63,690 nt of DNA, taken from positions 1-63,690 of the forward strand of contig VGOB01000001.1 in NCBI GenBank assembly GCA_016865935.1, in the 5' to 3' direction. This stretch comes from Chloroflexota bacterium (GTDB lineage Bacteria > Chloroflexota > Anaerolineae > UBA4142). Of this stretch, positions 18,351 through 63,548 are shown in pieces. Positions within the stretch are counted from its first letter, which is position 1, and each line of letters begins with the position of its first letter. The translations under genes and the position numbers were made by a program. The notes beneath the pieces were generated by a model. It was not told where the DNA came from and did not search any database. It saw nothing but the letters and a program-made list of their open reading frames with translations.

Positions 18351-18437
18351 AGTGGACAGTGAACAGTGGGCAGTATTCAGTATTCAGTATTCAGTGTTCA
18401 GTCACTGGATACTGGATACTGAACACTGAATACTGGA
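18351..18437. repeat. palindromic repeat built from CAGTATT heptamers (copy A1), between gap and pgk
   Basis: CAGTATTCAGTATTCAGTATTCAGTGTTCAGTCACTGG / ATACTGGATACTGAACACTGAATACTGG. Confidence 0.65.
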
Positions 18438-18438
18438 T

Positions 18439-19620
18439 GTGGCTATGAACAAAAAAACCGTCAAAGATATCAACCTTAAAGGCAAACGCGTCTTGATGCG
18501 CGTAGATTTCAACGTGCCGATGGACAAGGGTGTGGTGACTGACGACAAGCGCATCCGCGCCGCGCTGCCGACGATTCAGTACGTGCTGGAACAAGGCGCG
18601 GCGTTGATCGTGATGAGCCACCTGGGTCGCCCGAAAGGCGCGGGCTTTGAAGCCGAGTTCAGTTTGAAACCTGCCGCCGAAGTGTTGGGCAAACTGCTCA
18701 ACCAGCCAGTCCAGATCGCGCCCGATTGCATCGGACCCGAAGTTGAAGCGCTGGCAAAGTCGCTGAAGCCCGGCGAAGTGCTGATGCTGGAAAACGTGCG
18801 TTTCCACAAAGAAGAAGAGAAGAACGATCCTGGGTTCGCCAAGCAACTTGCCGCGCTCGGCGAAATCTACGTGAACGACGCGTTCGGCTCGGCGCACCGC
18901 GCGCACGCGAGTACCGAAGGCGTGGCGAAGTTTCTCCCCGCCGTCTCCGGCTTTTTGATGGAGCAGGAATTAGAGTACCTGGGTCGCGCGACGCTGAATC
19001 CTGCACGGCCGTACATCGCGATTCTGGGCGGCGCGAAGATCAGCGACAAGATCGCGGTGATCGAAAACTTGTTGACCAAGTGCGACAAGTTGATCATCGG
19101 CGGCGGAATGGCGAATACGTTCCTCGCGGCAAAGGGTTACGCGATGCAAGACAGTCTCGTCGAGCCCGGCGCGATTGAGACCGCGAAGAAAATCATCGCG
19201 AACGCCGGCGGCAAACTCCTCTTGCCGATTGACGCGGTGATCGCGGACAAGTTCGAAGCCGAAGCCGCGAACAAGGTCGTGGACGCGGACAAAGTTCCGG
19301 CGGGCTGGCGCATTATGGACATTGGTCCCCAATCGGTTGTGCTATTCAGCGACGCGCTCAAAGGCGCGAAACTCGTCGTGTGGAACGGACCGATGGGCGT
19401 GTTCGAAATGCCAAAGTTCGCCGAAGGCACATTCGCGATCGCGAAAGTGTTGGCGGCATCCGGCGCGACGACTGTGATCGGCGGCGGCGACAGCGCGAGC
19501 GCGGTGAAAAAAGCCGGAGTCGCGAAACAAATGACGCACGTCTCGACCGGCGGCGGCGCGTCGCTCGAATTTTTGGAAGGCAAGGTTCTGCCGGGCGTTG
19601 CGGCGTTGAATGACAAGTAA
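18439..19620 (+). CDS. pgk: phosphoglycerate kinase
   Basis: 393-aa ORF. Motifs RVDFNVP and [12 protein letters not shown], with full-length Pgk similarity. Confidence 0.95.
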
Positions 19621-19657
19621 ACGCAAGTAGACAGTCAACAGTAGACAGTAGACAGAT

Positions 19658-19695
19658 AGACCTTCGCGATTTCCAAAACGCGAAGGTCTTTTTTT
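19658..19695 (+). terminator. rho-independent terminator after pgk (family I hairpin, copy I2)
   Basis: AGACCTTCGCG-ATTTCCAAAA-CGCGAAGGTCT followed by TTTTTT. It is preceded by GTAGACA heptamers at 19626..19657. Confidence 0.7.
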
Positions 19696-19704
19696 GACGG
19701 GGTG

Positions 19705-19713
19705 TGGTATAAT
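19705..19713 (+). promoter_or_regulatory. extended -10 element upstream of the Uma2 gene
   Basis: TGGTATAAT at 19705..19713, 26 nt upstream of the ATG at 19739. Confidence 0.3.
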
Positions 19714-19738
19714 AGTGGCAGGGAAAGAGAGGTATGCA

Positions 19739-20320
19739 ATGATCGTTCGAACGTTGCCTGAACCAACTGTCAACGTGGTCATGTCGCCGGTGACAGCCGC
19801 TGAATTGGAACGGATGCCGCAACCCGACGCGCATGTTGAACTCGTGAAAGGAGAAATCGTCACGATGTCACCCTCAGGACACGAACACGGAGAAATCGCT
19901 CTGGCGATTGGATCGTTGTTGCGCGAGTTTGTCCGGAAGCACAAACTCGGCAAAGCCTATGCCGCCGAAACCGGTTTCATTCTTTCGCGCAATCCTGACA
20001 CGGTGCGCGCGCCGGACGCCGCGTTCGTCACGGCGGCGCGCGCGGCGCAACAGACGCGGCGGCAAGGTTTCTTCGATGGCGCGCCGGATCTCGCAGTCGA
20101 AGTCGTGTCGCCTGAAGACACGGTAGACGAGATTGATACCAAGGTGCTCGAGTATCTGCACGCCGGGACGAAGTTGGTGTGGGTCGTTCATCCGCGCACG
20201 CAAACGATCACCATCTATCGCTCGCTCGATCAAGTGCGCGTGTTGACGGCGAACGATACGTTGGACGGAAACGATGTGTTACCTGGGTTCGCGCGCGCGG
20301 CGCGCGAGATTTTTGAATAG
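19739..20320 (+). CDS. Uma2-family (DUF820) endonuclease
   Basis: ATG at 19739 with GGGAAAGAGAGG SD. Sequence ...VELVKGEIVTMSPSGHEHGEIA...RAPDAAFV...PDLAVEVVSPED is typical of Uma2. Confidence 0.8.
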   Translation: MIVRTLPEPTVNVVMSPVTAAELERMPQPDAHVELVKGEIVTMSPSGHEHGEIALAIGSLLREFVRKHKLGKAYAAETGFILSRNPDTVRAPDAAFVTAARAAQQTRRQGFFDGAPDLAVEVVSPEDTVDEIDTKVLEYLHAGTKLVWVVHPRTQTITIYRSLDQVRVLTANDTLDGNDVLPGFARAAREIFE

Positions 20321-20325
20321 AGACA

Positions 20326-20363
20326 AGACCTGGAAGATTTCCAAAACCTTCCAGGTCTTTTTT
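20326..20363 (+). terminator. terminator hairpin between the convergent Uma2 and rqcH genes (family I, copy I3)
   Basis: AGACCTGGAAG-ATTTCCAAAA-CCTTCCAGGTCT followed by TTTTT. Confidence 0.6.
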
Positions 20364-22020
20364 ATTTCAGCGCCACGCTCACCGTTCGTTCCCCGCGCAC
20401 CGTCACCATTCCGGCGCGTCCGCCGCGCGCGCGTTGCACCTGCTTGCGCGGCGCGACGATCACATCTACACGCGTCTCGCCGCGCGCGGCGGAGTAGCGC
20501 GCCGCCAACCCCGCCGCTTCCTCGATCGTGGATTCCGAAATCGCGCGTCCGGCGCGGACGATGACGACGTGCGCGCCCGCGACATTCCGCGCGTGCAACC
20601 ACACATCATCCGATTTCGCGCGCCGAAACGTGACCTCCTCATTTTGCCGCGCGTTCTTGCCAACCAGGATCGCAAATCCTTCGCGCGAGGTGAATTCGCG
20701 CGGCACGCTGGGCGCGGTTTTCACGCGTTGCTTGGCGACGGCGATCAATCCGGCGTCGCGCGCGGCGGCGATCACCGCGTCGATTTCCGCGCGACTCTCC
20801 GCCAGCTCGAGATCGGTCAACGTCTGCTCCGCGTATTCCACTTCGACGTTCGCGGCGGCGAGCAACGCCGGTACGCGCGCCCGCGCGTCTTTTTGCCGGT
20901 GATACTCTTTGAAAAATTTCTGCGCGTTCTCCACAGCGGACAAGTTCGGATTCAACGCAATCTCTAATCCCGAATCTCCGATCTCGATTTTCAAAATTCC
21001 TTGCCCTCGCGCGATCGCGTGCGCGTGCGCCAAGATCGTCTCGCCGCTGGCGCGCAACCGCTCCACCTCTGCCGCGCTGGGCAACGCGTCCGCGAGCGCG
21101 TCGCGTTTGCGCGCCAGCCGATCGCGCGCGTCCGCGATTTGCGCGCGCAGCGGTTCTTTCACCGCCGCGTACGATTCCGGCGCGCCGTAGAATGATTCGA
21201 TGGCGGCGCTGATAGATGGGAAAATTTGGTGATGCGGTGAGTGGGTGATGGGGTACGGCGCGAACGCCGCGGGCTCGTCGTCTTCGAACGCGACGCACGG
21301 TTGCCAGGGCGCGCGCGTCAGCGCGTGGAACGTCGCGACGATGTCCACCGCGCGCCGCGGATCGTTGGGCGCGTCACACTCGCCGGTGACGCGGAACGCG
21401 ATTTCGCGCGCGAGCAGCGGACTGACTCCGGCAATCGAACCGACGAGCGTGTGGCGCAGCAGCGCGCGCGGATTCGCGGCGAGAATGCGCGCCAGATCGG
21501 ACGGATCGAGATTGCCGGGATGAATTTTCGCTTGCGGCGGCGGCGGCGCGTAGACGTGGCGCGGCAACACAACGCGCGCGCGATTGATCGTCGCGTCCAC
21601 GCGCTTGAGCGCGTCGAGCACGACGCCGTCCGCGTCGAGCAAAACGAGGTTCGCGTACTTGCCAATCGTTTCGACGACGAGCGTGGTGATCCCTTCGCGC
21701 GCGTGATCGAATCGGAGTTGGAGGACGCGTTCGTGCTGCAGCGGCGTGATCGCGTCCAGCAACGCGTTCTCGACGCGCTTGCGGAGCAAGAGCAACAACG
21801 GCGACGGCGGCAGTCCGCGCGCGCGCAATTTCTGCGCAACGAGATGGACGCGCGCGTCTTGAGGATGCGCGGTGAGGTAGAGATAGCGCCGCGTGTGCTG
21901 CGCGTAAATTTCCACGCCGAACGCGTGCGCGTCGAGTTGCGCAATATCTTGGACGCGCCCGCGCAAGATTTTTTCGTTCAGTTCAGCCGCAACGGCGGCA
22001 AGTGTGATCGCGTCAAACAT
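20362..22020 (-). CDS. rqcH: NFACT/RqcH-family ribosome quality-control protein (FbpA-like)
   Basis: 552-aa ORF. NFACT-N start MFDAITLAAVAAELNEKILRGRVQDI, a coiled-coil middle, and C-terminal NFACT-R (DVWLHARNVAGAHVVI). Confidence 0.85.
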   Translation of the reverse strand: MFDAITLAAVAAELNEKILRGRVQDIAQLDAHAFGVEIYAQHTRRYLYLTAHPQDARVHLVAQKLRARGLPPSPLLLLLRKRVENALLDAITPLQHERVLQLRFDHAREGITTLVVETIGKYANLVLLDADGVVLDALKRVDATINRARVVLPRHVYAPPPPQAKIHPGNLDPSDLARILAANPRALLRHTLVGSIAGVSPLLAREIAFRVTGECDAPNDPRRAVDIVATFHALTRAPWQPCVAFEDDEPAAFAPYPITHSPHHQIFPSISAAIESFYGAPESYAAVKEPLRAQIADARDRLARKRDALADALPSAAEVERLRASGETILAHAHAIARGQGILKIEIGDSGLEIALNPNLSAVENAQKFFKEYHRQKDARARVPALLAAANVEVEYAEQTLTDLELAESRAEIDAVIAAARDAGLIAVAKQRVKTAPSVPREFTSREGFAILVGKNARQNEEVTFRRAKSDDVWLHARNVAGAHVVIVRAGRAISESTIEEAAGLAARYSAARGETRVDVIVAPRKQVQRARGGRAGMVTVRGERTVSVALK

Positions 22021-22039
22021 TTAGGTTGAGCTTCAAGGA

Positions 22040-22181
22040 GTCCCGCCCCAAGCGTCGCCGGTTCGTCGCTAGTCGCCTGGTCGGTTAGTCGCATCGTCGC
22101 GGCGGGTTGCGCGCGACGAGTTGACCACGTGACCGAGTGACTAGGTGACGATCGGTTACCACAGGGGGCGGGACGGTTTTT
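22040..22181. repeat. about 140-bp imperfect hairpin element closed by GTCCCGCCCC/GGGGCGGGAC
   Basis: 10-bp closing arms at 22040..22049 and 22165..22174. The interior has TAGTCGC/GTGACTA-type half-repeats. GGTTTTT follows on the plus strand. Confidence 0.4.
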
Positions 22182-22315
22182 ATTCGACTGGGCGACCTCG
22201 CGCGCGCCGCAGTCAGGACAGGGTCTGGACTTTCCCCCAGGGCGCCGCGGCTGCCATCCAGCGTAGCAGATGGACAGCATTTCTGGCGGTCCTTACGCCA
22301 CCTGCTGGGATAGTA

Positions 22316-22400
22316 CTCGACGCCACCACCACCCGCACACCGTTGTCGTTGTTGTCGTTGTTGCGGTTGTTGTTGTTGCGAGCGCGCACACCGGCGGTTT
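22316..22400 (-). repeat. DGR template repeat (TR), non-coding and AAC-rich
   Basis: The 85 bp align without gaps to 22703..22787 (offset 387). There are 73 identities and 12 mismatches, and every mismatch is at a coding-strand adenine of this copy. In the target frame it reads AGVRARNNNNRNNDNNDNGVRVVVAS. Confidence 0.8.
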
Positions 22401-22461
22401 AGACGACCCTGCCCTACAACACAGATTGACTTGCGCCAACCCGAATTGCCAAATTGATCTT

Positions 22462-22585
22462 GTCATTGCGAGGAGCGGTTTGTGCACCGAAGCAATCCCC
22501 AACTGCGATTTGGACGCTTCGCGGCTTCGGCATCCTTCGACTCCGCAGCAAAAACGCTGCTCCGCTCAGGATGCCTCGCAATGAC
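22462..22585. mobile_element. MITE-like element, GTCATTGCGAGGAGC family (copy H2), lying between VR and TR
   Basis: Termini are GTCATTGCGAGGAGCGG ... GCCTCGCAATGAC, followed by ACACGC as in copy H1. Confidence 0.55.
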
Positions 22586-22604
22586 ACACGCGAAAAATTT
22601 TTCG

Positions 22605-22631
22605 ACGAGGGGGCGCAATGCGCCCCCTCGT
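22605..22631 (-). terminator. GC-rich 12-bp stem, 3-nt loop hairpin downstream of the NACHT-FGE gene and VR
   Basis: ACGAGGGGGCGC-AAT-GCGCCCCCTCGT. On the minus strand it is followed by CGAAAAATTTTTCG. It lies 72 nt beyond the VR end. Confidence 0.45.
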
Positions 22632-22683
22632 GCTCCCCCAGCGCGTCAGAAAAAACAGAAAACAGAAGATCAGAAAACAGAAA

Positions 22684-25600
22684 TCAACTGCGGGGGAAAA
22701 TCCTCGACGCCACCACCACCCGCACACCGTCGGCGCTGTCGTCGTAGTAGCGGTCGGAGTAGCTGCGAGCGCGCACACCGGCGGATTCTGCTTTAGTCCA
22801 GTACGCGCCGCCGCGAAGGTACGCGGCATCAATGTTCTCGTAAAGAGTACTCGTCCACTCCCACGCATTCCCCGCCAAGTCCCAAATCTCGCCGCCATCC
22901 TCAGTGATGCGTTTTCCATCGGGATACATCGCGACCGGCGTCGTGCCGCCAATTTCGCTTTCTTTCACATTCGCGCGCGCCAATGTCATTGCGAGGAGCG
23001 ACCCTGAGCGGAGCGAAGCGGAGTCGAAGGGTTGCGACGAAGCAATCCCCGAATCGGGAGTTGGAGATTGCTTCGCTCCGCTCGCAATGACAGATGGATC
23101 CCAGGGATAGCGATTGTTTTCCTCACCGCCCGCCGCGCGCACCCACTCGGCTTCGGTGGGCAAACGAACAAAGGATGAAGGATGAAGGATGAAAGATGAA
23201 TTCTCTCCCCCTCTCCCGCTCTCCCCGTCTCCCCCTCTCAATCTCTCCGTCAGCCACGCGCAATACGCGCTCGCTTCGTACCACGTCACGCCGATCACCG
23301 GATAGCCGGCGCGATGGAAACGCGGATTGTCCCAGTACCTCGGTCGGCGTTCCGCGCCGCCCGCGCGTTTCAGCCAGTCCCACGCTTCGTCTTTCAAGTT
23401 TTTCGCGCGTCCGTTTTCATCCACGCCGGATGGGTCGCGCCAGTATTTTTCGTCGGCGTAGCCGCCCGCGTCAATGAATTTTTGGTACTGCGAACAAGTG
23501 ACCGGATATCTGGCGATCCAGAATTCGGGCAGGTCAGAAACCAGGTTTCTCCGAGAAACCTGGTTTCTCTCTGCGGCAGGGATGTGAACGAACGCGTCCA
23601 GATCGTCCGGCAGCCAGCCCAGCGCGTCGAGGATTTCGCCCGCGGCGGCGCGGTCTTTAATCGGCGTTTGGATGGACTGCATCATCGTTCGCAGTTTGGT
23701 CACAATCTCGTCGCGCAGCGGCGCGGCAAGCCGGTCGCTCATATCCACCGCCGCTTTGCCCGCCATCAAAAGATGTCCGCGTTGGAGCATTTCGTCCATC
23801 AACAACTTGCGGCGCGGGTCGCCCAGTTCCTTCAACGCCAGCGCGAGCAAAATCGTCTCTTCCCACCACGCCTCGCCGATGTGCGCCAACACTTTTTGCG
23901 CGAGCGCGGCATCGAGTTCTTTGACGAGTTCGGTCGCGGCGAGGTACTCGCGAAAGTTCGAGTGCGAAAAGTTGTAGAGATTCGGCGCGCCTTCGACGAA
24001 CAAGCCGCTGCGTTGGTGCGCGATGACGAGAAAACCGCGCGCCCACTGGTCCGGCACATTCTTTTCGCCCTCGCGCTCGCGGAAAAAAGTTCCCAGTTGC
24101 GCCAGCGCATCTTGTTCCGTCGTCTCGGCGCGTCCTTGCTGCTGCATCCAGTACGCCAGATGCGCGAGCGCGCGGTGTTTCGCTTCGACGGCTTCGCCGA
24201 CGTCGCGAAACGCGCGCCCGGTGCCGTCGTCGGTCGCCAGTTGAAACGCTTCCGCCACGTCGTAGCGCGACGTGTCCCAAAAGCCGAGCAAGAGGTCAAC
24301 GATTTCTTTGAAAATATCGACGCGGCGTTCCGGCAGCGTCGCGCCGCGATATTTCGAGACGAGGACGATCGTCGTGCAAAAAAGCGGATTGCGCGAGAGT
24401 TCGTCCACCTTTTCCTTTTGCGGAATTTCTGCGAGCAAGGTCGCCGCGTCGTGACTGGCGCGCGCGGCGTCCCGTTCGAGCGCGCGGCACAATTTGCGAA
24501 TCAATTCCGCGCGTCCTTCCGGCAGCAAGGGCTGGACCGTGCAAACGATGGGGCGCGGCAGGTACTCCGCCACTTCGTCGTATCCTTTGGGACGTGACGA
24601 AAGGACAAAACGATTTTTACGGGGGCGATAGCGATCGATGAATTGTGTGACGTGCTGCGCGACACACGCGCGCAGTTCCGGATCGGACACTTCGTCGAGC
24701 GCGTCGAGCAGGACGAGGCACTTGCCATTCTCCAGACGTTGGCGAAAGAAATCCGGCGTGAGCGCGAGCGCGTTCTTGGTGAAATGATCTTGAATGTACG
24801 TCAACAACGACATCGGCGCGGGCGCGGGAAATTCTTTGCGATGATTCTTGAGAAACTCGCCAAAGTTGCGGAGCGGGACGAGGATCGGCAAAAGCGGATC
24901 GCCTTGCCAATCCAATTTTTCTTTCGCGTCGCCGTTCGCAAACGCGAGCGCAAGATGGCGCAAGAGTGTCGTCTTGCCGGAACCCGGCGCGCCTTTGAGC
25001 AAGACGTAATCGTACCGCGGCAAAATGTCGTTGATCGTTTGCGGCTTGAAACCTTCCAGGTCTCCAAGACCTGGAAGGTTTTTGTCAACGCGCCGCCGCG
25101 CTTTTTCTTCCGCTTCGGGATCGTGGACTTGAAGCGGGACAAAGACGGCTTCCAGTTCGGCTTCGGTCGTCGCTTCGCGACTGCGCGGGCGCACAAAGAG
25201 GAACGAAAGGTAGGTGTGTTTTTCGCGGACGTGCGCGAGGTAATCGTTCAACGCCTGCGCGTGATCGCCCGTCGTCGCAATGCCTTGCGCGGCGGCAAGC
25301 GCGGCAAGCCAGGTGTTCGTCGCGTCCTGCTTTTTTGCCGCGCGCAATTCGAGCGCGAATTTCATCAGCGGCTCGTACGCCTTGATCTGCGCGAAACGCA
25401 AGCGAAATTCCCAGAGGAACGCGGCGAGCGTGGGACGCGCTTGCTCGTTCAAACCAAAGGCGCGCAAGAGATCGTCCGAAATGCGCGTGGGGCTGGGATC
25501 GTCCAGCGTGAGGAGCGCGGCAAGCGTCTGCTTTTGCAAGTTCCTGTCGGTCGCCAGTTTGGCAACGCGCGTGAGGATAGCGTCGGCTTGCGCGTTGGTC

Positions 25601-25815: not shown

Positions 25816-25828
25816 CGCGCCTCCAAAG

Positions 25829-25861
25829 AGACCTTCCAGGTTTCCAAAACCTGGAAGGTCT
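25829..25861. repeat. family I hairpin (copy I5) between the Phd-like gene and the NACHT gene start
   Basis: AGACCTTCCAGGT-TTCCAAA-ACCTGGAAGGTCT. Confidence 0.55.
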
Positions 25862-25868
25862 GTGAGTT

Positions 25869-26111: not shown

Positions 26112-26166
26112 CTTATTTTCTCCTCCGCCACATTATACCATGTTTCGCGTTTCACGCATCACGCCT

Positions 26167-26201
26167 TTGGCTCATTGGCTCATTGGTCAATTGGCTCATT
26201 G
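26167..26201. repeat. direct GGCTCATT octamer tract (copy F2, half element)
   Basis: TTGGCTCATTGGCTCATTGGTCAATTGGCTCATTG overlaps the stop codon of the permease gene. Confidence 0.5.
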
Positions 26202-27293: not shown

Positions 27294-27299
27294 ATTTTC

Positions 27300-27500
27300 C
27301 TCAGAGAGTTTTGAAATTCGACGGCGGTTAAAACCGCATCTACAAATTCACGAAATCCGCCTTCGCGGATTCAATTTCAGCCCGCGCAGGCGGGCTTGGC
27401 GATGTTGTTGCCGCGATTTCAATCGCCCGTGCCAATTTCAAAACACGTCCTCAATCTGAAATCTGAAATCGAAAACTTGTCCTGAGCAAAGTCGAAGGAT
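27300..27500. repeat. 217-bp intercistronic block of short stem-loops plus AATCTGA heptamers between the two permease genes
   Basis: GCGGTTAAAACCGC, AATCCGCCTTCGCGGATT, AGCCCGCGCAGGCGGGCT, GGCGAT...ATCGCC, then AATCTGAAATCTGAAATCGAAAAC. Confidence 0.5.
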
Positions 27501-27510
27501 CGAAAATACG

Positions 27511-32786: not shown

Positions 32787-32843
32787 GTTCAAGGTTCAAA
32801 GTTCGACGTTCAAACTTTGAACCTTGAACTTGGAACTTTGAAC
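32787..32843. repeat. palindromic repeat built from GTTCAAG heptamers (copy B1)
   Basis: GTTCAAGGTTCAAAGTTCGACGTTCAAACTTTGAACCTTGAACTTGGAACTTTGAAC. Confidence 0.65.
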
Positions 32844-32853
32844 CAGGGGAATT

Positions 32854-34042: not shown

Positions 34043-34108
34043 AGGGAGAGAGGGAGACAAGGAGAGAGGGAGAGCAGATGCCTCATCTCCCCGTCTCCCG
34101 CTCTCCCA
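34043..34108. repeat. palindromic repeat, GGGAGAGA family (copy D2)
   Basis: AGGGAGAGAGGGAGACAAGGAGAGAGGGAGAGCAG ... CTCCCCGTCTCCCGCTCTCCC. Confidence 0.6.
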
Positions 34109-34130
34109 CTCATTTCTTGGGAGCAGAACA

Positions 34131-35048: not shown

Positions 35049-35140
35049 AGAAGGATGAGGGATGAAGGATAAAGGATGAAGGATGAAAATTTTCCTCATC
35101 GCGCACTTTTTCATCCTTCATCCTTCCGCCTTCATCCTTT
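35049..35140. repeat. palindromic repeat built from GGATGAA heptamers (copy C2)
   Basis: AGAAGGATGAGGGATGAAGGATAAAGGATGAAGGATGAA ... TCATCCTTCATCCTTCCGCCTTCATCCTT. Confidence 0.65.
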
Positions 35141-47468: not shown

Positions 47469-47564
47469 ATTGGAACATTTGTATTATACACCCATTTGCG
47501 CGGAAAAGTAAAACGCGATACGAGGGGCGAGAGGCGAGGAGCGTAATTCGCAATTCCTAATTCG

Positions 47565-48758
<1,194 letters not shown>

Positions 48759-48759
48759 A

Positions 48760-49167
48760 TCACCTAACAAACCCATTCACAAAATCGTAATACCCGCGCC
48801 GTCCGAATTCTTTCTGCCACATCTCGATTGAGCGCAGGACGCGCTGCAGGCACGCGATCATTTCGTCCAGCGTTTTGGGCAGCGGCAACTCGGCGGGTGG
48901 TTTGCCATCCTCAGTCAAAATGGTGGCGCGTCCCAACCGCCAATCGCACAGCATCTTGACGTTGGTGTACGCTTCTTGGGTGAGCGGCTTGAGATTCAAA
49001 TTGGGTTCGGCGCGTCCATCGCGTTCCGCTTTGTACGTCCGCATCAATGCTTTGACCGCGTCGCGCGCCTCCCAGTCCGTCATCTCGGCATGTTTGTCGT
49101 ACGTATGCACCAGCGCGGTTTCGATGTTGTGCAAAACGTCGAGATACTTGTCTTCAAATTTTTCCAA
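48760..49167 (-). CDS. hypothetical protein
   Basis: 135-aa ORF with a TTG start 3 nt after the GT2 stop. Its stop is 1 nt before the GT4 ATG. Composition is protein-like. No recognisable domain. Confidence 0.5.
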   Translation of the reverse strand: MEKFEDKYLDVLHNIETALVHTYDKHAEMTDWEARDAVKALMRTYKAERDGRAEPNLNLKPLTQEAYTNVKMLCDWRLGRATILTEDGKPPAELPLPKTLDEMIACLQRVLRSIEMWQKEFGRRGYYDFVNGFVR

Positions 49168-49170
49168 TCT

Positions 49171-50130
49171 CTAATCTCCAATCTCTAATCTCGATTTGAC
49201 CACTTGCCAATACGCCTTCACCCGCGCCGCGCGCATTTCGCGTTTGTGCCCCAACAACCATTTCGTTGCTTCTTCCGCGATCTGGTACACAAACATCAGC
49301 AACAAAAACACGCGCAAGATTTCAGCGACGAACGCGCCGCGCGTCTTGCGGAAAAAGCGCACCTTGCTCGAATGAAAATGAATATCGCGCTGCGCGACCA
49401 CTTGCTCCGATGATTTGCCTTCGTAATGCGTCACCTGCGCGGTCGGCAGGTAGACGATTTGCCATCCGGCTTGCTTCGCGCGATAGCACCAGTCAAGTTC
49501 TTCCGAGTACATAAAGAACCCTTCGTCCAAGCCGCCGATTTGATCGTAGACCGCGCGCTGCACGAACATCGCCGCGCCGTTGACCCAGTCCACCACTTGC
49601 GTCGCGTCGTCGCGCGTGTCGAGAATGTAATAGCGCGTCAGCGCGCGATTGCGCGGAAACCACTGTTGCAGTTTTGTAGATTCGAGAAACGCGGTCGCCA
49701 GCGTCGGGAAACGTCGCCGCGACGATTGGTGCGATCCATCGCCGTAAAAAAGTTGCGGACCGATGATGCCGACGCGCGGATGCGTTTCCGCGTACTCGTA
49801 CAACGTTTGCAGCGCGCCCGCGCGCAATTCCGTATCAGGGTTGAGCAGAAAAAGATAACGCCCCTGCGCGACCGCAAGGGCTTGATTGTTCGCGCGAGTA
49901 AAACCCGCGTTCTCGGTATTCGCAATCACGCGCACGCCGGGAAATTCCGCGCGCACCATTTCGACGGTGCCGTCAGAGGAGGCGTTGTCAACTACGACAA
50001 GTTCAAGGTTCAACGTTCGAGGTTCAAGGGTTGAACTTTGAACTTTGAACTTTGAACCTGCAACCGATGCAAGGCACTTGCGAAGCAGATCGCGCACGTT
50101 CCAACTGACGATGAGGATCGAAATGTCCAT
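49171..50130 (-). CDS. family-2 glycosyltransferase with an in-frame repeat insertion
   Basis: The ATG at 50130 gives MDISILIVSWNVRDLL. Motifs VVVDNASSDGT and NAGFTRANN. The ORF-track N-terminal extension is MITE sequence. Confidence 0.85.
   Translation of the reverse strand: MDISILIVSWNVRDLLRKCLASVAGSKFKVQSSTLEPRTLNLELVVVDNASSDGTVEMVRAEFPGVRVIANTENAGFTRANNQALAVAQGRYLFLLNPDTELRAGALQTLYEYAETHPRVGIIGPQLFYGDGSHQSSRRRFPTLATAFLESTKLQQWFPRNRALTRYYILDTRDDATQVVDWVNGAAMFVQRAVYDQIGGLDEGFFMYSEELDWCYRAKQAGWQIVYLPTAQVTHYEGKSSEQVVAQRDIHFHSSKVRFFRKTRGAFVAEILRVFLLLMFVYQIAEEATKWLLGHKREMRAARVKAYWQVVKSRLEIGD
50001..50058. repeat. GTTCAAG palindromic repeat (copy B3) in frame inside the GT2 gene
   Basis: GTTCAAGGTTCAACGTTCGAGGTTCAAGGGTTGAACTTTGAACTTTGAACTTTGAAC. 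It encodes SKFKVQSSTLEPRTLNLE between LASVAG and LVVVDNASSDGT. Confidence 0.65.
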
Positions 50131-54505: not shown

Positions 54506-54520
54506 CGTTGTCCTCAAGCG

Positions 54521-54593
54521 CAGTGTTCAGTATTCAGTTTTCAGTATCAAGTGAACTGAATACTGAACACTGAATACTGAATACTGTTCACTG
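54521..54593. repeat. CAGTATT palindromic repeat (copy A2), overlapping the glmM stop
   Basis: CAGTGTTCAGTATTCAGTTTTCAGTATCAAGTGAACTGAATACTGAACACTGAATACTGAATACTG. Confidence 0.65.
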
Positions 54594-56921: not shown

Positions 56922-56922
56922 T

Positions 56923-57882
56923 CTATCTGTTTCCTTTCACTTGATTTCGCCAATACTCCAAAATATCTTGCAGACTTGTCTCCAACGGAATCGTCGGCGT
57001 CCAGCCGGTCTGCGCGCAAAATTTCGCCGCGTCGCAAATGAGGATCGGCGTATCGGACGGGCGCAAGCGCGCCGGGTCTTGCTCGATCCGGATCGCCAGA
57101 TGACTTTGCTTCAGCATCAGCTCGACCACCGTTTGAATCGTGACCGCGTGCGCGCTGCCGATGTTGTACACCTCGCCGGGAACGCCGCGTTCGAGCGCGA
57201 GATCGTACGCGCGCACCATATCGCGCACGTCCGTAAAATCGCGCTGCGCGTCCAGATTGCCGACGCGCAGCACCGGCGCGCGCGCGCCGCTTTCGATCTC
57301 GGCGATCTGCTTGGCAAAGTTCGACGTGACGAACTGCTCGTTCTGGCGCGGACCGATGTGATTGGACGGGCGCACGCGCACAATCGCGAGTTGGTGGCTG
57401 AGAAAATATTGCAAGCCCAAAAAATCTTGCGCGATTTTGCTGACCGCGTACGGACTATCGGGGCGCAGCGGCGTCGCTTCCGTGATCGGCAGATCGCGCG
57501 GTTCGATCCGACCGTACTCGTCCAGCGAACCGACGACGAGGACGCGCGCCGACGATTGCGCACGCGCGGCAGCGTGCAACACGTTCACTTGCGCGCGGAT
57601 GTTGACCTCCAGCGTCGCCCACGGATCGCGCCACGACACCGGCGCAAACGCTTGCCCGGCGAGATGATAAATGCGCGTGGGCTGAGTCCGCGTCAACAAT
57701 GATTCACAAAAACGCGCGTCGGTCAAATCGCCGGAAATGAACGCGACGCGCCTACCCAGATGCGCGAGGTTCGCCGTTGCGCCAATGCCTGCGCCGAAAA
57801 TCTGCGCATCGGGCTGAGTCAGCAAAAAATCAGCCAGATGGCTACCGGCAAAACCGTTCATTCCTGTAATCAATACGCGCAT
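56923..57882 (-). CDS. rmd: NAD-dependent epimerase/dehydratase, likely GDP-4-dehydro-6-deoxy-D-mannose reductase
   Basis: 319-aa ORF. Motifs [33 protein letters not shown] and [10 protein letters not shown] resemble Rmd (from memory). Its stop is 1 nt from the gmd start. Confidence 0.7.
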
Positions 57883-58008
57883 CGTGTGGGCTCCACTAGT
57901 TCGGGGCGCATTATACCTTAATTCGGCGCGATTCGCAAAACGTTTGCCGCGTTTGCCAACGCGGTGGGTTGGGAATACAATAGATCCTCAAAGATAAAAA
58001 TGTTGCGA

Positions 58009-58038
58009 CGGTCGGCGGTCATCGGTCGGCGGTCGTAG
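58009..58038. repeat. CGGTCGG heptamer tract upstream of the NUDIX gene
   Basis: CGGTCGGCGGTCATCGGTCGGCGGTCGTAG. Confidence 0.45.
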
Positions 58039-58051
58039 TTGGAGAGTCATC

Positions 58052-58567
58052 GTGGAATCGAAATTTTGCGAACGGTGTGGAAACCCACTTGAACGGCGCG
58101 TCGTCGAAGAAAATCATCTGCGCCCGGTGTGTCCGGTATGTGGTTTCATCGTCTATCTCAATCCGCCGATTGCGGCAGGCGTGATCGCGGAACGCGCGGA
58201 TGGTAAAATCGCGCTGGTCTTGCGCGGCGAAAATCCGGGCAAGGGGTTGTGGGGGTTGCCCGCCGGGTTTATGGAGATTGACGAAACCGTCGAACAAGCC
58301 GCGCAGCGCGAATGCCTGGAGGAGACCGGCTTGCGCGTCGAGTTGCGCGATTTGCTGGGCGTGTGGTCATACCATCACCAGGAGAAACAAACGGCGGGCG
58401 TCCTCGTCGTCTACGCGGCGCGTGTGGATGGCGGCACGCCGCGCGCGGGGAGCGATTCCGTCGAAGTAAAATTTTTCGCGTTGGACGAAATTCCGGACGC
58501 GCAACTCGCGTTCGCGACGCACCGCGACGCGATTGCGCGTTGGCGAGAGAAGAAAATGAGCCAATGA
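58052..58567 (+). CDS. NUDIX hydrolase with N-terminal zinc ribbon
   Basis: 171-aa ORF with a GTG start after GGAGAG. Zinc-ribbon Cys pairs CERCG...CPVCG. Nudix box GLWGLPAGFMEIDETVEQAAQRECLEETG. Confidence 0.82.
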   Translation: MESKFCERCGNPLERRVVEENHLRPVCPVCGFIVYLNPPIAAGVIAERADGKIALVLRGENPGKGLWGLPAGFMEIDETVEQAAQRECLEETGLRVELRDLLGVWSYHHQEKQTAGVLVVYAARVDGGTPRAGSDSVEVKFFALDEIPDAQLAFATHRDAIARWREKKMSQ

Positions 58568-58616
58568 ACCAATTGACCAATGAGCCAAATCATCGCGGAT
58601 GATTTGGCTCATTGGT
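58555..58616. repeat. GGCTCATT palindromic repeat (copy F3) covering the stop codons of two convergent genes
   Basis: AATGAGCCAATGAACCAATTGACCAATGAGCCAAATCATC ... GATGATTTGGCTCATTGG. Confidence 0.6.
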
Positions 58617-59526
58617 TTATGCCGAGTCCAAGCTCTGCGGCGAATTGCTGCGCGCGCAACAATTCGCGGAGTGTGACAGTGCGATTCAATTCGGGATAGT
58701 GAGACGCGTGATAGCGCGGGCGATACTGCGCCATCACGTTGACGTACGTCCGTGGTGAGATGTCGTGCGCCAGCCAGCGCAAGGTTTCGCGTGTGCCGGC
58801 AAGATCGTCCGGCAACAGCAGATGCCGCACGAGCAGACCGCGCGTCGCGATGCCCCATTCATCCATTTGCAAATCGCCCACCTGCCGATGCATCTCTTGC
58901 GCCGCCGCGCGATTGATCGCGGGATAATCGCGCGCCTTGGAATATTGGCGCGCGATTTCCGCGTCGGCGTATTTCATATCCGGCATATAAAGATCCACGA
59001 CGCCGTCGAGCAGCGCGAGCGCTTCCGGCGAATCGTACCCGCCGGTGTTGTAGACGATTGGGATACGCAAACCGGCTTGCGCGGCGATCAGCGTCGCCGC
59101 GAGAATCGGCGCGACGACGTGACTGGGGCTGACGAAATTGATGTTGTGACACCCGCGCGCTTGCAGACGCAACATCGCCGCCGCCAGGTCTTCAGGTTCG
59201 ACCTCGTTCCCCTCGCCCAGTTGACTGATTTCGTAATTCTGGCAGTAGACGCACCGCAAGTTGCACCACGCGAAAAAGATCGTCCCCGATCCGCCGCGCC
59301 CAACGAGCGGTGGTTCTTCTCCAAAATGCGCGCCGTAACTCGCGAGCACGGCGCGCGCGCCCGTGCGACACACCGCGCCCTGGATCGTCGTGTGACGATT
59401 GACGCCGCAATGCTGCGCGCACAAATCGCATCGTTCCAAGTGTTGGTACGCCGCGCGCGCGCGCGCCGCCAGTTCGCCGGTTTTGTGCAGACGAAGGTAC
59501 GCCGGCTCGAACATTGCTGGGCTCAC
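58609..59526 (-). CDS. radical SAM protein, PflX-like (COG1313-type)
   Basis: 305-aa ORF. The GTG at 59526 overlaps the ggt stop by 4 nt; an alternative ATG lies at 59514. Cluster motif CNLRCVYCQN. Confidence 0.8.
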   Translation of the reverse strand: MSPAMFEPAYLRLHKTGELAARARAAYQHLERCDLCAQHCGVNRHTTIQGAVCRTGARAVLASYGAHFGEEPPLVGRGGSGTIFFAWCNLRCVYCQNYEISQLGEGNEVEPEDLAAAMLRLQARGCHNINFVSPSHVVAPILAATLIAAQAGLRIPIVYNTGGYDSPEALALLDGVVDLYMPDMKYADAEIARQYSKARDYPAINRAAAQEMHRQVGDLQMDEWGIATRGLLVRHLLLPDDLAGTRETLRWLAHDISPRTYVNVMAQYRPRYHASHYPELNRTVTLRELLRAQQFAAELGLGINQ

Positions 59527-61154
59527 ATTCCAATCGCGCAGCCGTCCGCGCGCGGATCACTTCCGCCCCAGAGCGTTCCGTCCGGCTCGCGCCGAATGAT
59601 TTGTCCGCGCCCAAACGTCGCGCGCGCATAGCCGCTGACCGGCACAACCGAATGCCCCATCTGCGCCAAGCGTTCCATCGTCTCAGGTTCGATTCCTTCT
59701 TCAAGTTGCACCGCGCTGGATGGCTGCGCTGCGGTCAAGCAAAAACGCGGACGATCGAGCGCGGCTTGCGGATCGAGATCGTCGTCAATCATTCCGGCGA
59801 CGACTTGGACGTGCCCTTGCGGCTGCATAAATCCGCCCATCACGCCAAAGGGCGCGTACAACGATCCGTCCGCTTCGCGCGTGATCATTCCGGGAATGAT
59901 CGTGTGGTACGGTCGTTTGCGCGGCGCGAGCGCGTTGGGGTGATCGGGAGCGAGCGAAAAGTTGTTGCCGCGATTTTGCAGCGTAAAGCCCCAGCCCTGC
60001 GGAACGATCCCGGTCCCAAAGCCCATATAATTTGAATTGATGATCGAGGCGCCGTTGCCTTGCGCGTCCACCACGCAAAAATACACCGTGTCCGACGACG
60101 CCACCGGCGCGCCGTGGCGCGTGTCCAGCGTAGCGTATTCCGGACTGATCAGCGCGCGCCGCGCCGCCGCATATTTTTTCGACAGCAAGCCGGCAAGCGG
60201 CGCAGGCGAAAATTTTGGATCGGCGACGTACCAACTCGTGTCTGCAAACGCGACGCGCAGCGCTTCGATCAACAAGTGCCACCGCGCCGCGCTCGATGGC
60301 GCGCTCGCTTTCAGATCGAATCCTTCGAGAAGGTTCAGCGCGATCAATGCGGCAAGTCCTTGTCCGTTTGGCGGGCACTCCCATACGCGATAGCCGCGAT
60401 ACGTCGCGCTGATTGGTTCATCCCAGGTTGATTCGTGCGCGGCGAGATCGTCCGGCGTCATCACGCCGCCGGATTGCCGGATCACGTCCGCAATCGCGCG
60501 CGCGATCTCGCCGCGATAGTACGCGTCCGTGCCGCCTTCGGCAATCGCGCGGAACGTGCGCGCGAGTCCGGGGTTGCGAAAGAGTTCGCCGGCGTGCGGA
60601 CCGCGTCCATCCAGCGTCAGTTCGCGTCCGTTCAACGCGGCTTTGAGTTGACGTTCCGCGCCGCGCTGCCAAAAGTACGCCGTCGTCGGCGCGACCGGAA
60701 ATCCTTTTTCTGCAAGTTCAATCGCGGGTACGAGAATTTCGCTCATCGGCATTGTGCCGTGCCGCGCGATCAGATCGCACCACCCCGCGCACGCGCCGGG
60801 CACCGTGACGTTATGTGCGTGATAGGGATCGGAGATTTGGTGATGGGGTGATTGGAGGTTTTGTTGCTTGATCACGTCAATCGTCAACGCGGCGGGCGCG
60901 CGCCCAGAGCCATTGAGCGCGGTGATATGTTTCGTGCACGCGTCGTAGAACAGCGCAAAAAAATCGCCGCCGAGTCCGGTGGAAGTCGGCTCGGTAACAT
61001 TCAGCGCGGCGGCGGTGGCGATTGCCGCATCGGCGGCGTTGCCACCCTGCAATAAGATTTTTACTCCCGCCATCGTCGCGAGCGGCTGGCTGGAGGCAAC
61101 CATTCCATGGCGCGCGAGGACGGGGGAGCGGCGGGAGGCAAAGTCGAATGACAT
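59523..61154 (-). CDS. ggt: gamma-glutamyltransferase-family protein
   Basis: ATG at 61154 (GAGGGA SD). The ORF-track start lies in a repeat. Sequence ...RHGMVASSQPLAT..., TVYFCVVD, and GGSDPRADG near the C-terminus. Confidence 0.88.
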   Translation of the reverse strand: MSFDFASRRSPVLARHGMVASSQPLATMAGVKILLQGGNAADAAIATAAALNVTEPTSTGLGGDFFALFYDACTKHITALNGSGRAPAALTIDVIKQQNLQSPHHQISDPYHAHNVTVPGACAGWCDLIARHGTMPMSEILVPAIELAEKGFPVAPTTAYFWQRGAERQLKAALNGRELTLDGRGPHAGELFRNPGLARTFRAIAEGGTDAYYRGEIARAIADVIRQSGGVMTPDDLAAHESTWDEPISATYRGYRVWECPPNGQGLAALIALNLLEGFDLKASAPSSAARWHLLIEALRVAFADTSWYVADPKFSPAPLAGLLSKKYAAARRALISPEYATLDTRHGAPVASSDTVYFCVVDAQGNGASIINSNYMGFGTGIVPQGWGFTLQNRGNNFSLAPDHPNALAPRKRPYHTIIPGMITREADGSLYAPFGVMGGFMQPQGHVQVVAGMIDDDLDPQAALDRPRFCLTAAQPSSAVQLEEGIEPETMERLAQMGHSVVPVSGYARATFGRGQIIRREPDGTLWGGSDPRADGCAIGM

Positions 61155-61165
61155 AATCCCTCGTT

Positions 61166-61222
61166 TCAAAAGTTCAAAGTTCAAGGTTCGATGTTGAACT
61201 TGGAACCTTGAACTTTGAACCT
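61166..61222. repeat. GTTCAAG palindromic repeat (copy B4)
   Basis: TCAAAAGTTCAAAGTTCAAGGTTCGATGTTGAACTTGGAACCTTGAACTTTGAACC. Confidence 0.65.
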
Positions 61223-61230
61223 CAAGCTCA

Positions 61231-62187
61231 CTATGCGGCGCGCGAGCCGGGCACTGCGACCGAGTGGAGCAACTCGTCCACGACCGCGCGCGCGTCCACG
61301 TTCTTCAGGCGCGCGGCGGGGCTGACGATGAGCCGGTGCGCGAGCGCGGCTCCGGCAAGCGCTTTGATGTCGTCGGGGATGACGTAAGCGCGACCCTGGA
61401 TCGCGGCGCGCGCTTGCGCGGTTTTGTAGAGCGCGAGCGAGCCGCGCGGGCTCGCGCCGAGATAGATATCGGGATGTTTGCGCGTCGCTTCGATCAGCGC
61501 GAGGATGTACTCTTTGACGAGCGCGTCAATGTACACATCTTTGACCGCGCGCTGTGCGTGCGTCAATTCATCCGCGCGGGCAACCTGATCGATCTGATCG
61601 ATCGGGTGCGCGAATTGCTGCGCGTCGAGCATCGCCATTTCGTCTTGCGGGGCAGGATAGCCGAGGTGGAGGCGAAGCATAAAGCGATCGAGTTGCGCTT
61701 CGGGCAAGGGAAACGTGCCTTCGTACTCGATGGGATTTTGCGTTGCCATCACCAGAAACGGTTGCGGCATCGGATACGTGATGCCGTCCACGGTGACCTG
61801 GCGCTCCTCCATACATTCGAGGAGCGCGCTTTGCGTCTTGGGCGTCGCGCGATTGATCTCATCGGTCAGCACGATTTGCGCGTGCACGGGTCCGGGACGA
61901 AATTCGAATTCGCGCGATTTTTGGTTGAAGACGCTGACGCCGGTCACATCGGTCGGCAACATATCCGGCGTAAATTGAATCCGCTTGAACGAACAGCCCA
62001 ACGATTTTGCCAGCGCGCGTGTGAGCATCGTCTTGCCGACGCCCGGCACATCTTCGATCAGCAAATGCCCCTGACACAAGAGCGCGATCAGCGCGAGTTC
62101 GACTTCGTTATGTTTGCCCAGGATCACGCGCTCGACATTCGCGGAAATTTTTTGCGCGAGCGTTTGAACGATTTGGATGTCAGACAT
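61231..62187 (-). CDS. MoxR-family AAA+ ATPase
   Basis: 318-aa ORF. Motifs [13 protein letters not shown] and [16 protein letters not shown]. Confidence 0.9.
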
Positions 62188-62198
62188 AGTTTTTTGGG

Positions 62199-62285
62199 GG
62201 TTGGGTGATTAGTGATCGGCGAGTAGATGATTGGGTGATTGGGCAACGTGTTGACTAATCACCGATTACCAATCACTGCTTGACT
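62199..62285. repeat. GTGATTGG/GTGATTAG palindromic repeat (copy G2)
   Basis: GGGTTGGGTGATTAGTGATCGG...GATTGGGTGATTGGG ... GACTAATCACCGATTACCAATCAC. Confidence 0.55.
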
Positions 62286-62288
62286 GAA

Positions 62289-62843
62289 CTACGGATTCGC
62301 AATCGTGAAACGGATTTCGCACGGCGGCGGATATTGTCCGTCTTTTTGGACGACCATCAGGCGTAACCAGTAGACGCCGTTGGGCAACGTGCGCGTGGCG
62401 AGGCGCGCCAGCACCTCGTTTACGATTGGCGCGTCGCCATTGCCCAGCATCGCGTAGTTCGTGTTGCCATCGGTGCGATATTCGACTTTCCAGTACTGTA
62501 AGATCGGATGCGTCGCCGTGCCGCGAACTTCGATGATGTCAGTCACCTGACTGTCCATCGTCGGCGCGCTGATCGTCGCGCTGGAATTGCGACACGCGAG
62601 CGGCGACGCGCTGGTCGGCGTGCGCGCGGGCAGAGTTGGCGTTAGCGTCAATGTTGCCACAAGTGTCGGCGTGGATGAGGGTTCGAGCGTGACGGTGGGT
62701 AACAAGGTCGCGGTGGGTGGGAACGCGGTGGGTTGACCGAGCGTTGGCAGGACGGCGGGCAGGGGTGTGGGCTCCGCCGGTTGGCAACTTGAAATCAATC
62801 CAAGTGTGGTGATGAGGAACAGCATGCAAAAATATCGTCGCAT
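62289..62843 (-). CDS. secreted lipoprotein with a PT-rich linker and a C-terminal beta-rich domain
   Basis: 184-aa ORF. Lipobox LGLISSC. C-terminal sequence ...VEYRTDGNTNYAML...NGVYWLRLMVVQKDGQYPPPCEIRFTI. Confidence 0.6.
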   Translation of the reverse strand: MRRYFCMLFLITTLGLISSCQPAEPTPLPAVLPTLGQPTAFPPTATLLPTVTLEPSSTPTLVATLTLTPTLPARTPTSASPLACRNSSATISAPTMDSQVTDIIEVRGTATHPILQYWKVEYRTDGNTNYAMLGNGDAPIVNEVLARLATRTLPNGVYWLRLMVVQKDGQYPPPCEIRFTIANP

Positions 62844-62899
62844 TACTCAACCTTGAGTGTTCAGTATTCAGGCATCAGAAAATATTGTCTGGCGACTGT

Positions 62900-63493
62900 C
62901 TACTGACGACTGACGAGTTGCTTGCTTCGCGCGTCTCCCTGGAACGCCGGCACGCGTCCTTCTTCCGTGATGCGGTACAAGTCCTCTGGTTTTTCCAAGC
63001 GGTCGGTGAACAAGATGCCGTCGAGGTGATCGATCTCGTGTTGAAACGCGCGCGCGAGCAATCCTTCGCCGGTCAGTTTGACTTCCTTGCCGTTGCGGTT
63101 CAAACCCTTGACGATCACTTTTTCTGCGCGGCGCACCATACCGACGTACCCCGGAATCGAAAGACATCCTTCCTCGCCAATCTGTTCGCCTTCCGCTTTG
63201 ACGATTTCCGGATTGACGAGCGCGATGCGTTCGCCGCTGTATTTGATGCGGCGTCGTTTTTCGCGCGCTTCGGCTTCAATCGTATCGTCCACCTCTTCCT
63301 TCGTCATCTCGACGATAAAGACGCGCGCGCTCACGCCGATCTGCGGCGCGGCAAGTCCAAGTCCGTACGCTTCGTGCATCGAATCGAACATATCGTCAAT
63401 CAGTTTTTGGATCGCCGCGTCGACGCGTTTAACTTTTTTTGCTTTTTGCCGGAGCGCGGGATGCTCCGAAGTGAGTATTTCTTTGATAGCCAT
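62900..63493 (-). CDS. def: peptide deformylase
   Basis: 197-aa ORF. Motifs GLAAPQIG, EGCLSIPG and HEIDHLDG. Confidence 0.9.
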   Translation of the reverse strand: MAIKEILTSEHPALRQKAKKVKRVDAAIQKLIDDMFDSMHEAYGLGLAAPQIGVSARVFIVEMTKEEVDDTIEAEAREKRRRIKYSGERIALVNPEIVKAEGEQIGEEGCLSIPGYVGMVRRAEKVIVKGLNRNGKEVKLTGEGLLARAFQHEIDHLDGILFTDRLEKPEDLYRITEEGRVPAFQGDARSKQLVSRQ

Positions 63494-63498
63494 TCCAT

Positions 63499-63548
63499 CA
63501 GTATCCAGTATTCAGTATTCAGTATCCACTGAATGCTGAATACTGAAC
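63499..63548. repeat. CAGTATT palindromic repeat (copy A3)
   Basis: CAGTATCCAGTATTCAGTATTCAGTATCCACTGAATGCTGAATACTGAAC. Confidence 0.6.

Follow-up and report, generated by a model that had tools for sequence, protein, structure and literature searches.

What maintains a set of palindromes, each arm of which is a tandem repeat of seven or eight nucleotides, between the genes of bacterial operons, and how did they come to be there? The question is raised by a 63,690-nt stretch of DNA from a Chloroflexota bacterium (Anaerolineae, UBA4142; GenBank contig VGOB01000001.1, positions 1 to 63,690), hereafter the window, whose sequence coincides exactly with the opening 63,690 bases of a 96-kb JGI lake-water metagenome contig (Ga0194113_10000082). 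Its Pgk protein finds its best matches in MAGs (metagenome-assembled genomes) of Anaerolineales (78%) and Thermoflexales (65–66%), which places the organism in the class Anaerolineae of the Chloroflexota. An original prediction, made from the letters alone, had described many unit sequences recurring as tandem heptamers and occasionally octamers, and had likened them to repetitive extragenic palindromes (REP) and to the short tandemly repeated repetitive (STRR) sequences of cyanobacteria. We give about an even chance to the view that these are STRR-type heptanucleotide-repeat hairpins, in several multi-copy families with arms of 7- or 8-nt tandem units, and that they would be retained as intercistronic stems.

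Arrays were located with Tandem Repeats Finder and with a period scan of our own, which required 12 of 14 matches at lag p and took its expectation from Markov-1 simulations. The scan detected 24 period-7 runs in the window (0.6 expected) and nine period-8 runs (0.2 expected), together with 20 period-14 runs, a harmonic of period 7; periods 4, 5, 10 and 11 were at background level. At each of the coordinates previously listed, Tandem Repeats Finder reported an array of period 7 or 8, including the octamer arrays at 6811, 26167 and 58555, for which the unit had been given as GGCTCATT, and the two arrays that start within a NACHT-FGE gene at 23171 (GGATGAA) and 23203 (GGGAGAGA octamers). The claims of periodicity and of a multi-family structure were borne out by the scan and by the sharing of units between loci. 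The claim that an array is usually followed by its inverted copy applied to about half of the loci, the other half being direct arrays only, with no partner for those at 19626, 22647, 26167, 27451, 47546, 47777, 48245 and 48585. On folding, long near-perfect hairpins (ΔG −25 to −50 kcal/mol, loops of 3–20 nt) were found at 6811, 18351, 32787, 34043, 35049, 50001, 54521, 58555, 61166 and 63499.

The enrichment is not confined to the window; such confinement had been named in the original prediction as grounds for abandoning the idea. A further 17.6 kb of the same contig, bringing the DNA inspected to 81 kb, contains seven period-7 and five period-8 arrays (other periods each ≤2), among them two more CAGTATT hairpins, one TTTTCGA hairpin and one AATGAGCC array, hence the same families continue. 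In a metagenome run where the genome stands at ~17× coverage, the GTTCAAG hairpin is matched by 45 contigs and the CAGTATT hairpin at 54521 by 35, several of these hairpin-matching contigs being at 12–22×, the genome’s own depth. The objection that the copies are assembly artefacts is excluded, since the JGI contig is matched base for base by independent assemblies (those made by Logan from at least eight runs, those of two further JGI samples, and one from ENA), which are 100% identical across the elements; the CAGTATT hairpin at 18351, for example, is identical in an ENA assembly. All longer assemblies were 100% identical, indicating a clonal population, and Logan contigs aligned over 19.5 kb carry no information on population polymorphism because their unitigs break at the repeats. 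CRISPR-like arrays were rejected as an identity for the repeats, there being no spacers.

The families behave as dispersed copies. Nine pairs of loci have an identical unit, against 0.3–0.5 expected (P about 1e-4), and the resemblance extends to the order of variant units. The left arms of the five CAGTATT hairpins have a common run of two to three consecutive CAGTATT-type units, three of the five carry the variant unit CAGTGTT, and two of those three also have the same apex (...CAGTATT CAGTGTT CAGTC(A)ACTG...). A AATTNNCC variant, reading AATTGACC, AATTGTCC or AATTTTCC, recurs in all four AATGAGCC arrays; it takes the second position in three of them and the third position in the other. Likewise, the GTTCAAG hairpins terminate in ...TTTGAACC in three of three cases, with GTTCGAN as the third left-arm unit at 32787 and 50001 and its counterpart at 61166 being GTTCGAT on the plus strand. 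As the order of variant units is common within a family, the copies were dispersed from master copies and are not independent products of slippage; the families descend from common master copies, hence some spreading mechanism must exist. No target-site duplication or common terminal motif was found among the flanks and ends of the aligned family copies, and miniature inverted-repeat transposable elements (MITEs) were rejected because no direct duplication flanks any aligned copy. A further regularity concerns polarity: in all seven hairpins with a G–C difference of at least 0.2 per nt, the G-rich arm is 5′. A palindrome reads alike on both strands, so this G-arm-first polarity is a real property and not a matter of strand choice, but it does not apply to the main families, which are G/C-neutral.

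Placement relative to genes was taken from JGI gene calls and their Pfam lists. Approximately 20 of 33 arrays fall within the 10% of the window that is non-coding, and an array is present in 11 of the 30 spacers ≥40 nt long that separate co-directional genes. The hairpins start 0–10 nt past the upstream stop codon and end 6–40 nt before the next start codon, leaving the Shine–Dalgarno (SD) sequence free, such as GGGGA before cinA and GGGAG before ilvE. The CAGTATT hairpin at 18351–18438 fills the gap–pgk spacer from 2 nt past the TAA to 6 nt before the pgk ATG, that at 54521–54590 fills the PGM1–PGM2 spacer with the PGM1 stop codon inside its outer unit, and that at 63499–63550 lies 5 nt upstream of the def start codon. 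GTTCAAG hairpins occupy the ProDH–CinA spacer (32787–32845), beginning directly after the TGA and with the SD GGGGA 3′ of the hairpin, and the MoxR–GGT spacer (61166–61222). The adjoining spacers hold a GGGAGAGA/TCTCCCC octamer hairpin (CinA–IlvE, 34043–34111) and an AAGGATG/CATCCTT hairpin (IlvE–EamA, 35049–35139). A AATGAGCC/ATTGGCTC octamer hairpin (6811–6884) fills the DUF166–FTHFS spacer, with 3 nt between its end and the FTHFS stop codon, and another AATGAGCC hairpin (58555–58615) covers the 3′ end of NUDIX together with the spacer that separates it from a convergent radical-SAM gene. The description of the elements as lying between cistrons therefore stands for most hairpins, which are in operon spacers, and fails for at least nine arrays that lie in frame within GT4, GT2 and NACHT-FGE genes (see below).

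An intrinsic (Rho-independent) terminator was rejected as an identity for these hairpins. No U-tract was found 3′ of the heptamer hairpins, a terminator scan reported none of them, and they lie inside operons. A canonical terminator with a GC stem and T7 tract does follow pgk (~19659–19697); it is separate from, and comes after, the five-unit GTAGACA direct array at 19626–19661 that follows the pgk stop.

Comparison with relatives shows how the elements change. A metagenome scan with IlvE recovered four syntenic contigs (L089–L092), a small sample, at 77–83% nucleotide identity, in which three of the operon-spacer hairpins were compared; two are kept in relatives and the third is absent. In the ProDH–CinA spacer, L089 has an orthologous GTTCAAG hairpin of equal length (83% identical), and in L090 a left arm of (GTTNCAG)5 precedes an insert of 563 nt. 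In the IlvE–EamA spacer, the AAGGATG/CATCCTT hairpin is kept in L089, L090 and L092 at 85–88% identity, with two extra units (14 nt) in the window’s left arm only. One base pair of this stem has changed on both sides (AAGGATG/CATCCTT versus AAGTATG/CATACTT), a compensatory pair, and two further pairs have changed one-sidedly with pairing kept. Four-fold sites of the flanking genes are only 66% (L089) and 58% (L090) identical, against 83–88% for the hairpin spacers at the two sites (Fisher p about 5e-7), so the hairpins of these two operon spacers accumulate changes far more slowly than synonymous positions do. The IlvE–EamA stem retains −39 to −46 kcal/mol despite ~10 substitutions, whereas ten random substitutions reduce it to −23 ± 5 kcal/mol (p about 0.001).

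The octamer hairpin of the CinA–IlvE spacer (34043) has no counterpart in L089 and L090, in which ~30 nt separate the two genes. The IlvE–EamA site of L091 is occupied by the hairpin of a different family (GATTTCN/NGAAATC-type), and the ATTGGCTC octamer direct array of four units just past the stop of the BMP permease gene (26164–26201) corresponds to one or two degenerate units in L090. The gap–pgk spacer holds a hairpin in six of six Anaerolineae relatives examined, simple in four of them and octamer-armed in L001; its arms are tandem only in the window and L001. Thus, the elements change by whole units and by unit turnover, and are gained, lost or swapped for another family on-site. Among 80 pgk neighbourhoods taken from across the bacteria, only a handful approach the window in their density of period-7 arrays and hairpins, namely those of MAGs of Pyrinomonadaceae (L073), a ‘delta proteobacterium’ (L014), a MAG labelled archaeon (L022) and Fimbriimonadales (L006). 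Most have none, hence the distribution is sporadic across phyla.

Small inserts were observed in the loops of heptamer hairpins. The TTTTCGA-family hairpin at 5746–6037 (left arm 5746–5778, right arm 6012–6037) is split by a 214-nt element (5793–6006), and its joined arms fold at −31 kcal/mol. The 563-nt insert of L090 (8229–8792) is GC-rich and palindromic, with no convincing open reading frame (ORF) and no PF05635 gene.

At least nine arrays lie inside genes, every one in frame, and five of them are in a single GT4 glycosyltransferase gene (47565–48758, minus strand). From its 3′ end, the gene shows an AATTCGC array running into the GT4–FtsK spacer (47545–47587), (GACCGCT)4 (47774–47808), a TTGGAGA array (47979–48001), three GGTGATTN units followed by four GTTCAAG/GTTAAAA units in the interdomain linker (48200–48280) and (GACCGCT)7 near the N-terminus (48583–48633). 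The last of these lies near the 5′ end of the gene, and (GACCGCT)4 in the donor-binding loop. On the same strand, a TCTCTAA/TCCAATC array (49163–49194) spans the final codons of GT2 and the beginning of a 135-aa gene, and a complete 59-nt GTTCAAG hairpin (50001–50059) lies in frame inside GT2 (aa 29–50), where it encodes the peptide ..GSKFKVQSSTLEPRTLNLE.., placed after the first helix and before the VVDN strand. A comparison of GT2 with solved structures gave no match, and the insert was judged from Pfam alignment length and sequence. The NACHT-FGE gene, which resembles the targets of diversity-generating retroelements (DGRs), carries AAGGATG ×4 followed by CTCTCCCC ×4 (69 nt; 23168–23239, minus strand) in frame between its YCAWL and RLPTEAEW motifs. 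The surrounding 22859–23509 has a summed k-mer depth of ~10,700 in the source metagenome, compared with ~25 in neighbouring bins and only a 5–16-fold excess in other repeat-bearing bins; some word, in the arrays or in the nearby DGR-like repeat, is extremely abundant in the community.

The GT4 orthologue of L090 (19690–20912) is intact and keeps the linker array. At two other GT4 sites the unit is wholly different, and the length is either the same or differs by a number of nucleotides divisible by three. (GACCGCT)7 at 48583 corresponds to seven GAACGAC/GGAGGAC units of equal total length, and (GACCGCT)4 at 47774 to AACTTTG/AACCTTG units. At 47545 the AATTCGC array is matched by a GAAACGT/CCTCCTG hairpin. 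The change of GT4 units is concerted turnover, or replacement, under frame constraint. A change of one 7-nt unit would shift the frame, which makes GT4 a candidate phase-variable glycosyltransferase, and in-frame glycosyltransferase arrays candidate on/off switches for surface-sugar genes.

The remaining features of the window are further arrays and one degenerate element. An AACAGAA direct array lies at 22647–22686, an AATCTGA/AATCGAA array (27451–27475) in the 217-nt spacer between two permease cistrons, and a CGGTCGG array (58009–58035) in the divergent epimerase/NUDIX spacer. The ‘half copy’ of the original prediction (62856–62916) is a degenerate CAGTATT/ACTGACG element. Past the window, the same contig carries an acetyl-CoA synthase/carbon monoxide dehydrogenase cluster (L105, 9343–22262) with heptamer hairpins between several of its cistrons. 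Its genes (CdhC, CdhD, corrinoid Fe-S protein, RACo and a pterin-binding methyltransferase) complement cooS–fhs of the window. Two samples from the same lake (L093/L105 versus L094) are identical up to the window’s first base and diverge past that point, one version leading into a 120-aa gene plus a restriction-modification gene of MmeI type and the other into a Big_7 protein and a 1097-aa protein; this window edge is a strain-variable island.

How are these observations best explained? We propose that the hairpins are probably kept as intercistronic RNA stem-loops. The elements would be transcribed within polycistronic mRNAs as stems of 25–36 bp and may be retained as processing or stability elements, either as RNase III-type substrates or as barriers to 3′ exonucleases, and 7-nt replication slippage together with template switching within the palindrome would remodel and re-match the arms. 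Several points weigh against this proposal. The arrays and the whole hairpin in coding regions cannot be spacer signals, and the 34043 hairpin is dispensable in L089 and L090, since it is absent there. G·U compared with A·C mismatches (n = 12) showed no sense-strand preference, which RNA-level constraint might predict, and the ProDH–CinA stem of L089 (−19 versus −29 kcal/mol) is no stabler than expected from random substitution (p about 0.1). The slow divergence and the compensatory pair could also be due to homogenisation of arrays or template-switch correction rather than selection. Furthermore, in the three metatranscriptomes with sequence words in common with the region, the gap/pgk fragments all come from other organisms and none covers the hairpin.

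Some of these same points favour a pure by-product, which we regard as unlikely. Heptamer repeats grown by slippage, and palindromes made by fold-back template switching, would then be functionless and persist through slow deletion. The unit-wise indel at IlvE–EamA, the replacement of every unit within GT4 tracts whose length is maintained, the gain and loss seen among relatives and the lack of a sense-strand G·U bias all agree with such an origin, as does the slippage hypothesis for heptamer excess of Mrazek (2007), to the extent that it is relayed in PMC4679880 and PMC4692102. Independent local growth does not, however, predict distant loci with a common unit and a common order of variants. 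Nor does it account for hairpin spacers that diverge more slowly than four-fold sites, for placement between stop codon and SD, or for the 5′ position of the G-rich arm in seven of seven asymmetric hairpins.

In another alternative, the elements would be selfish mobile DNA of the REP/REPIN, MITE or Rickettsia palindromic element type, copied by an enzyme encoded elsewhere, for example a Y1 transposase related to REP-associated tyrosine transposases (RAYTs) and IS200; position and conservation would then reflect tolerated insertion sites. Multi-copy families with common internal structure fit this alternative, as do presence/absence and different families at one site between relatives, the presence of in-frame copies within coding genes, which Rickettsia palindromic elements also show, and the targeting of hairpin loops by other small inserts. 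We nevertheless find it rather unlikely. No Y1/RAYT (PF01797) or other transposase was present among the called genes of the inspected 81 kb (JGI Pfam lists), at least ten families would require many cognate enzymes, target-site duplications and a conserved terminal motif are lacking, and two hairpins have remained fixed on-site across ~20% nucleotide divergence.

Arms of this design can also bracket a gene. Slightly more than 100 loci were searched automatically for inverted arrays that lie far apart, and a single match was found, in the Fimbriimonadales contig L006 (9422–9990), where a gene of PF05635 (23S rRNA intervening-sequence protein; E = 8e-26) sits in a 422-nt gap between inverted arrays. 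PF05635 genes are likewise bracketed in L107, L108 and L109, two of them from Chloroflexota MAGs, with the G-rich arm upstream and its C-rich complement downstream. The arms of all four cassettes are tandem 7–8-nt units of GGTGAT type, and the PF05635 protein is a four-helix bundle. A search of phage contigs with a single PF05635 protein as query gave no match. We offer, as a distinctly unlikely speculation, that the palindromes are made and spread by a dedicated copy mechanism common to different phyla, maybe that of the PF05635 cassettes, of which the 7–8-nt period would be the footprint, and that gene-less hairpins are ‘mini-IVS’ (miniature intervening sequences) cut at the long stem. If true, cutting at the stem would let the elements sit harmlessly in spacers and coding regions alike.

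A direct derivation of the window hairpins from such intervening-sequence-type cassettes, in which the full form would be excised from host transcripts at the long stem and the window hairpins would have lost the gene, seems very unlikely to us. It draws on the four bracketed genes, on the G-arm-first polarity common to the cassettes and the G/C-asymmetric hairpins of the window, and on the many PF05635 homologues found on contigs shorter than 1.5 kb, as expected if flanking repeats break assemblies. All four cassettes, however, were picked for their resemblance to a single protein and are not independent. No PF05635 gene or remnant was detected in the window or the 17.6 kb past it, whether among small ORFs (E ≤ 1), by tblastn or in the Pfam lists, and the short loops of the window hairpins hold no gene relics. 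Only the (GGTGATTN)3 tract inside GT4 (48200–48225) resembles the cassette arms. With no such gene in the window or contig, and with main-family arms that are not of GGTGAT type, the link is architectural only. Finally, a signal at the DNA level (sites for nucleoid, repair or replication proteins, or cruciform extrusion) would suit the perfect strand symmetry of the palindromes, the absence of sense-strand G·U bias and the arrays in divergent spacers (15556, 58009) and inside genes, but it is highly improbable given placement tied to stop codons and SD sequences rather than promoters, and the lack of a candidate protein.

Two hairpins that evolve more slowly than silent positions make an intercistronic role for the RNA stem directly testable, and families of dispersed copies make a spreading mechanism something to search for. 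With the corresponding spacers of four syntenic relatives there is also a comparative case in which persistence, whole-unit slippage, re-matching of arms, family swap and new copies are all seen.

Heptanucleotide repeats of the STRR type were reportedly described in heterocystous cyanobacteria by Mazel in 1990, and to our knowledge bacterial heptanucleotide repeats have had no accepted function or origin since then. The cyanobacterial units STRR1–3 are CCCCAGT, TTGGTCA and CAACAGT. The resemblance noted in the original prediction holds in that the window has 7-nt tandem units of at least three copies in excess, dispersed over mainly intergenic loci and changing in copy number by whole units. 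Like STRR and long simple sequence repeats (LSSRs), the arrays are of three to seven copies in several unit families at many loci, and the copy-number change is seen in the 14-nt indel at IlvE–EamA and in the four versus one to two units at 26164. The CAGT core of STRR1 and STRR3 is common with one window family; otherwise the units are not those of STRR1–3. Our elements differ in their host (Chloroflexota, Anaerolineae), in their unit sequences and in the octamer families found alongside the heptamers. Moreover, about half of the loci here are full palindromes filling the stop-to-SD spacers, and there are in-frame arrays inside genes.

Published accounts make the original prediction’s suggestion that no such system has been described too strong. 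Heptanucleotide simple repeats are over-represented in many bacteria, according to Mrazek 2007 as far as it is reported in PMC4679880 and PMC4692102. Intergenic heptamer repeats are known as GGGAATC in Xanthomonas and GGGGA(C/T)T in Nostoc PCC 7120 (PMC4692102), TAACTGA repeats occur in Beggiatoaceae, cyanobacteria and Bacteroidetes (PMC4679880), and there is a heptamer satellite in Chloroflexus (PMC6749651). The repeats of Xanthomonas, Nostoc and Beggiatoaceae resemble those of the window as intergenic heptamer arrays near start and stop codons, some in inverted pairs, that vary in length and sequence between close relatives at conserved sites. Those systems, however, have one dominant, mostly direct unit per genome, whereas the window has at least ten units, often as full hairpins, and its units are mostly not G-quadruplex-forming. 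The closest structural precedent is the P6b stem of the tRNA-Leu(UAA) group I intron of Nostoc, a stem-loop of 7-nt motifs with 7/14-nt indels and switching of motif class (PMC4476775). In common with the window, 7-nt motifs form both arms, length varies in steps of 7 or 14 nt in a single arm or in both, the motif class is replaced on-site and the stem-loop takes up extra inserts. P6b is nevertheless a single locus in a structured intron, not a dispersed multi-family system in spacers and coding regions.

Kinship with REP and bacterial interspersed mosaic elements (BIMEs), which had also been suggested, is an analogy only. Window hairpins and REP/BIME/REPIN elements are alike as multi-copy intergenic palindromes inside operons, without U-tracts and as targets for small inserts, and the stabiliser role proposed for REP serves as a working model for the window hairpins (PMC3116915, PMC2817692). 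The window elements differ in having arms of tandem repeats with variable unit number, many families and copies inside coding regions, hence they are not strictly extragenic. The conserved 5′ tetranucleotide of REP was not found, the flanks and ends of family copies having no common motif, and no Y1/RAYT gene was found among the called genes of the 81 kb. On the features tested, membership of the REP/RAYT system is not supported.

Palindromic elements in frame within protein-coding genes, 100–150 bp long, were reportedly found in Rickettsia by Ogata in 2000. There, as in GT2 and NACHT-FGE here, an in-frame palindromic repeat adds a tolerated peptide loop; the Rickettsia elements do not consist of tandem short units and belong to a different phylum. 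What the window adds to these known systems is a further host lineage, a count of families found side by side, hairpins designed to run from stop codon to SD, and in-frame coding loops, together with evidence of constraint at two sites and of dispersal from master copies.

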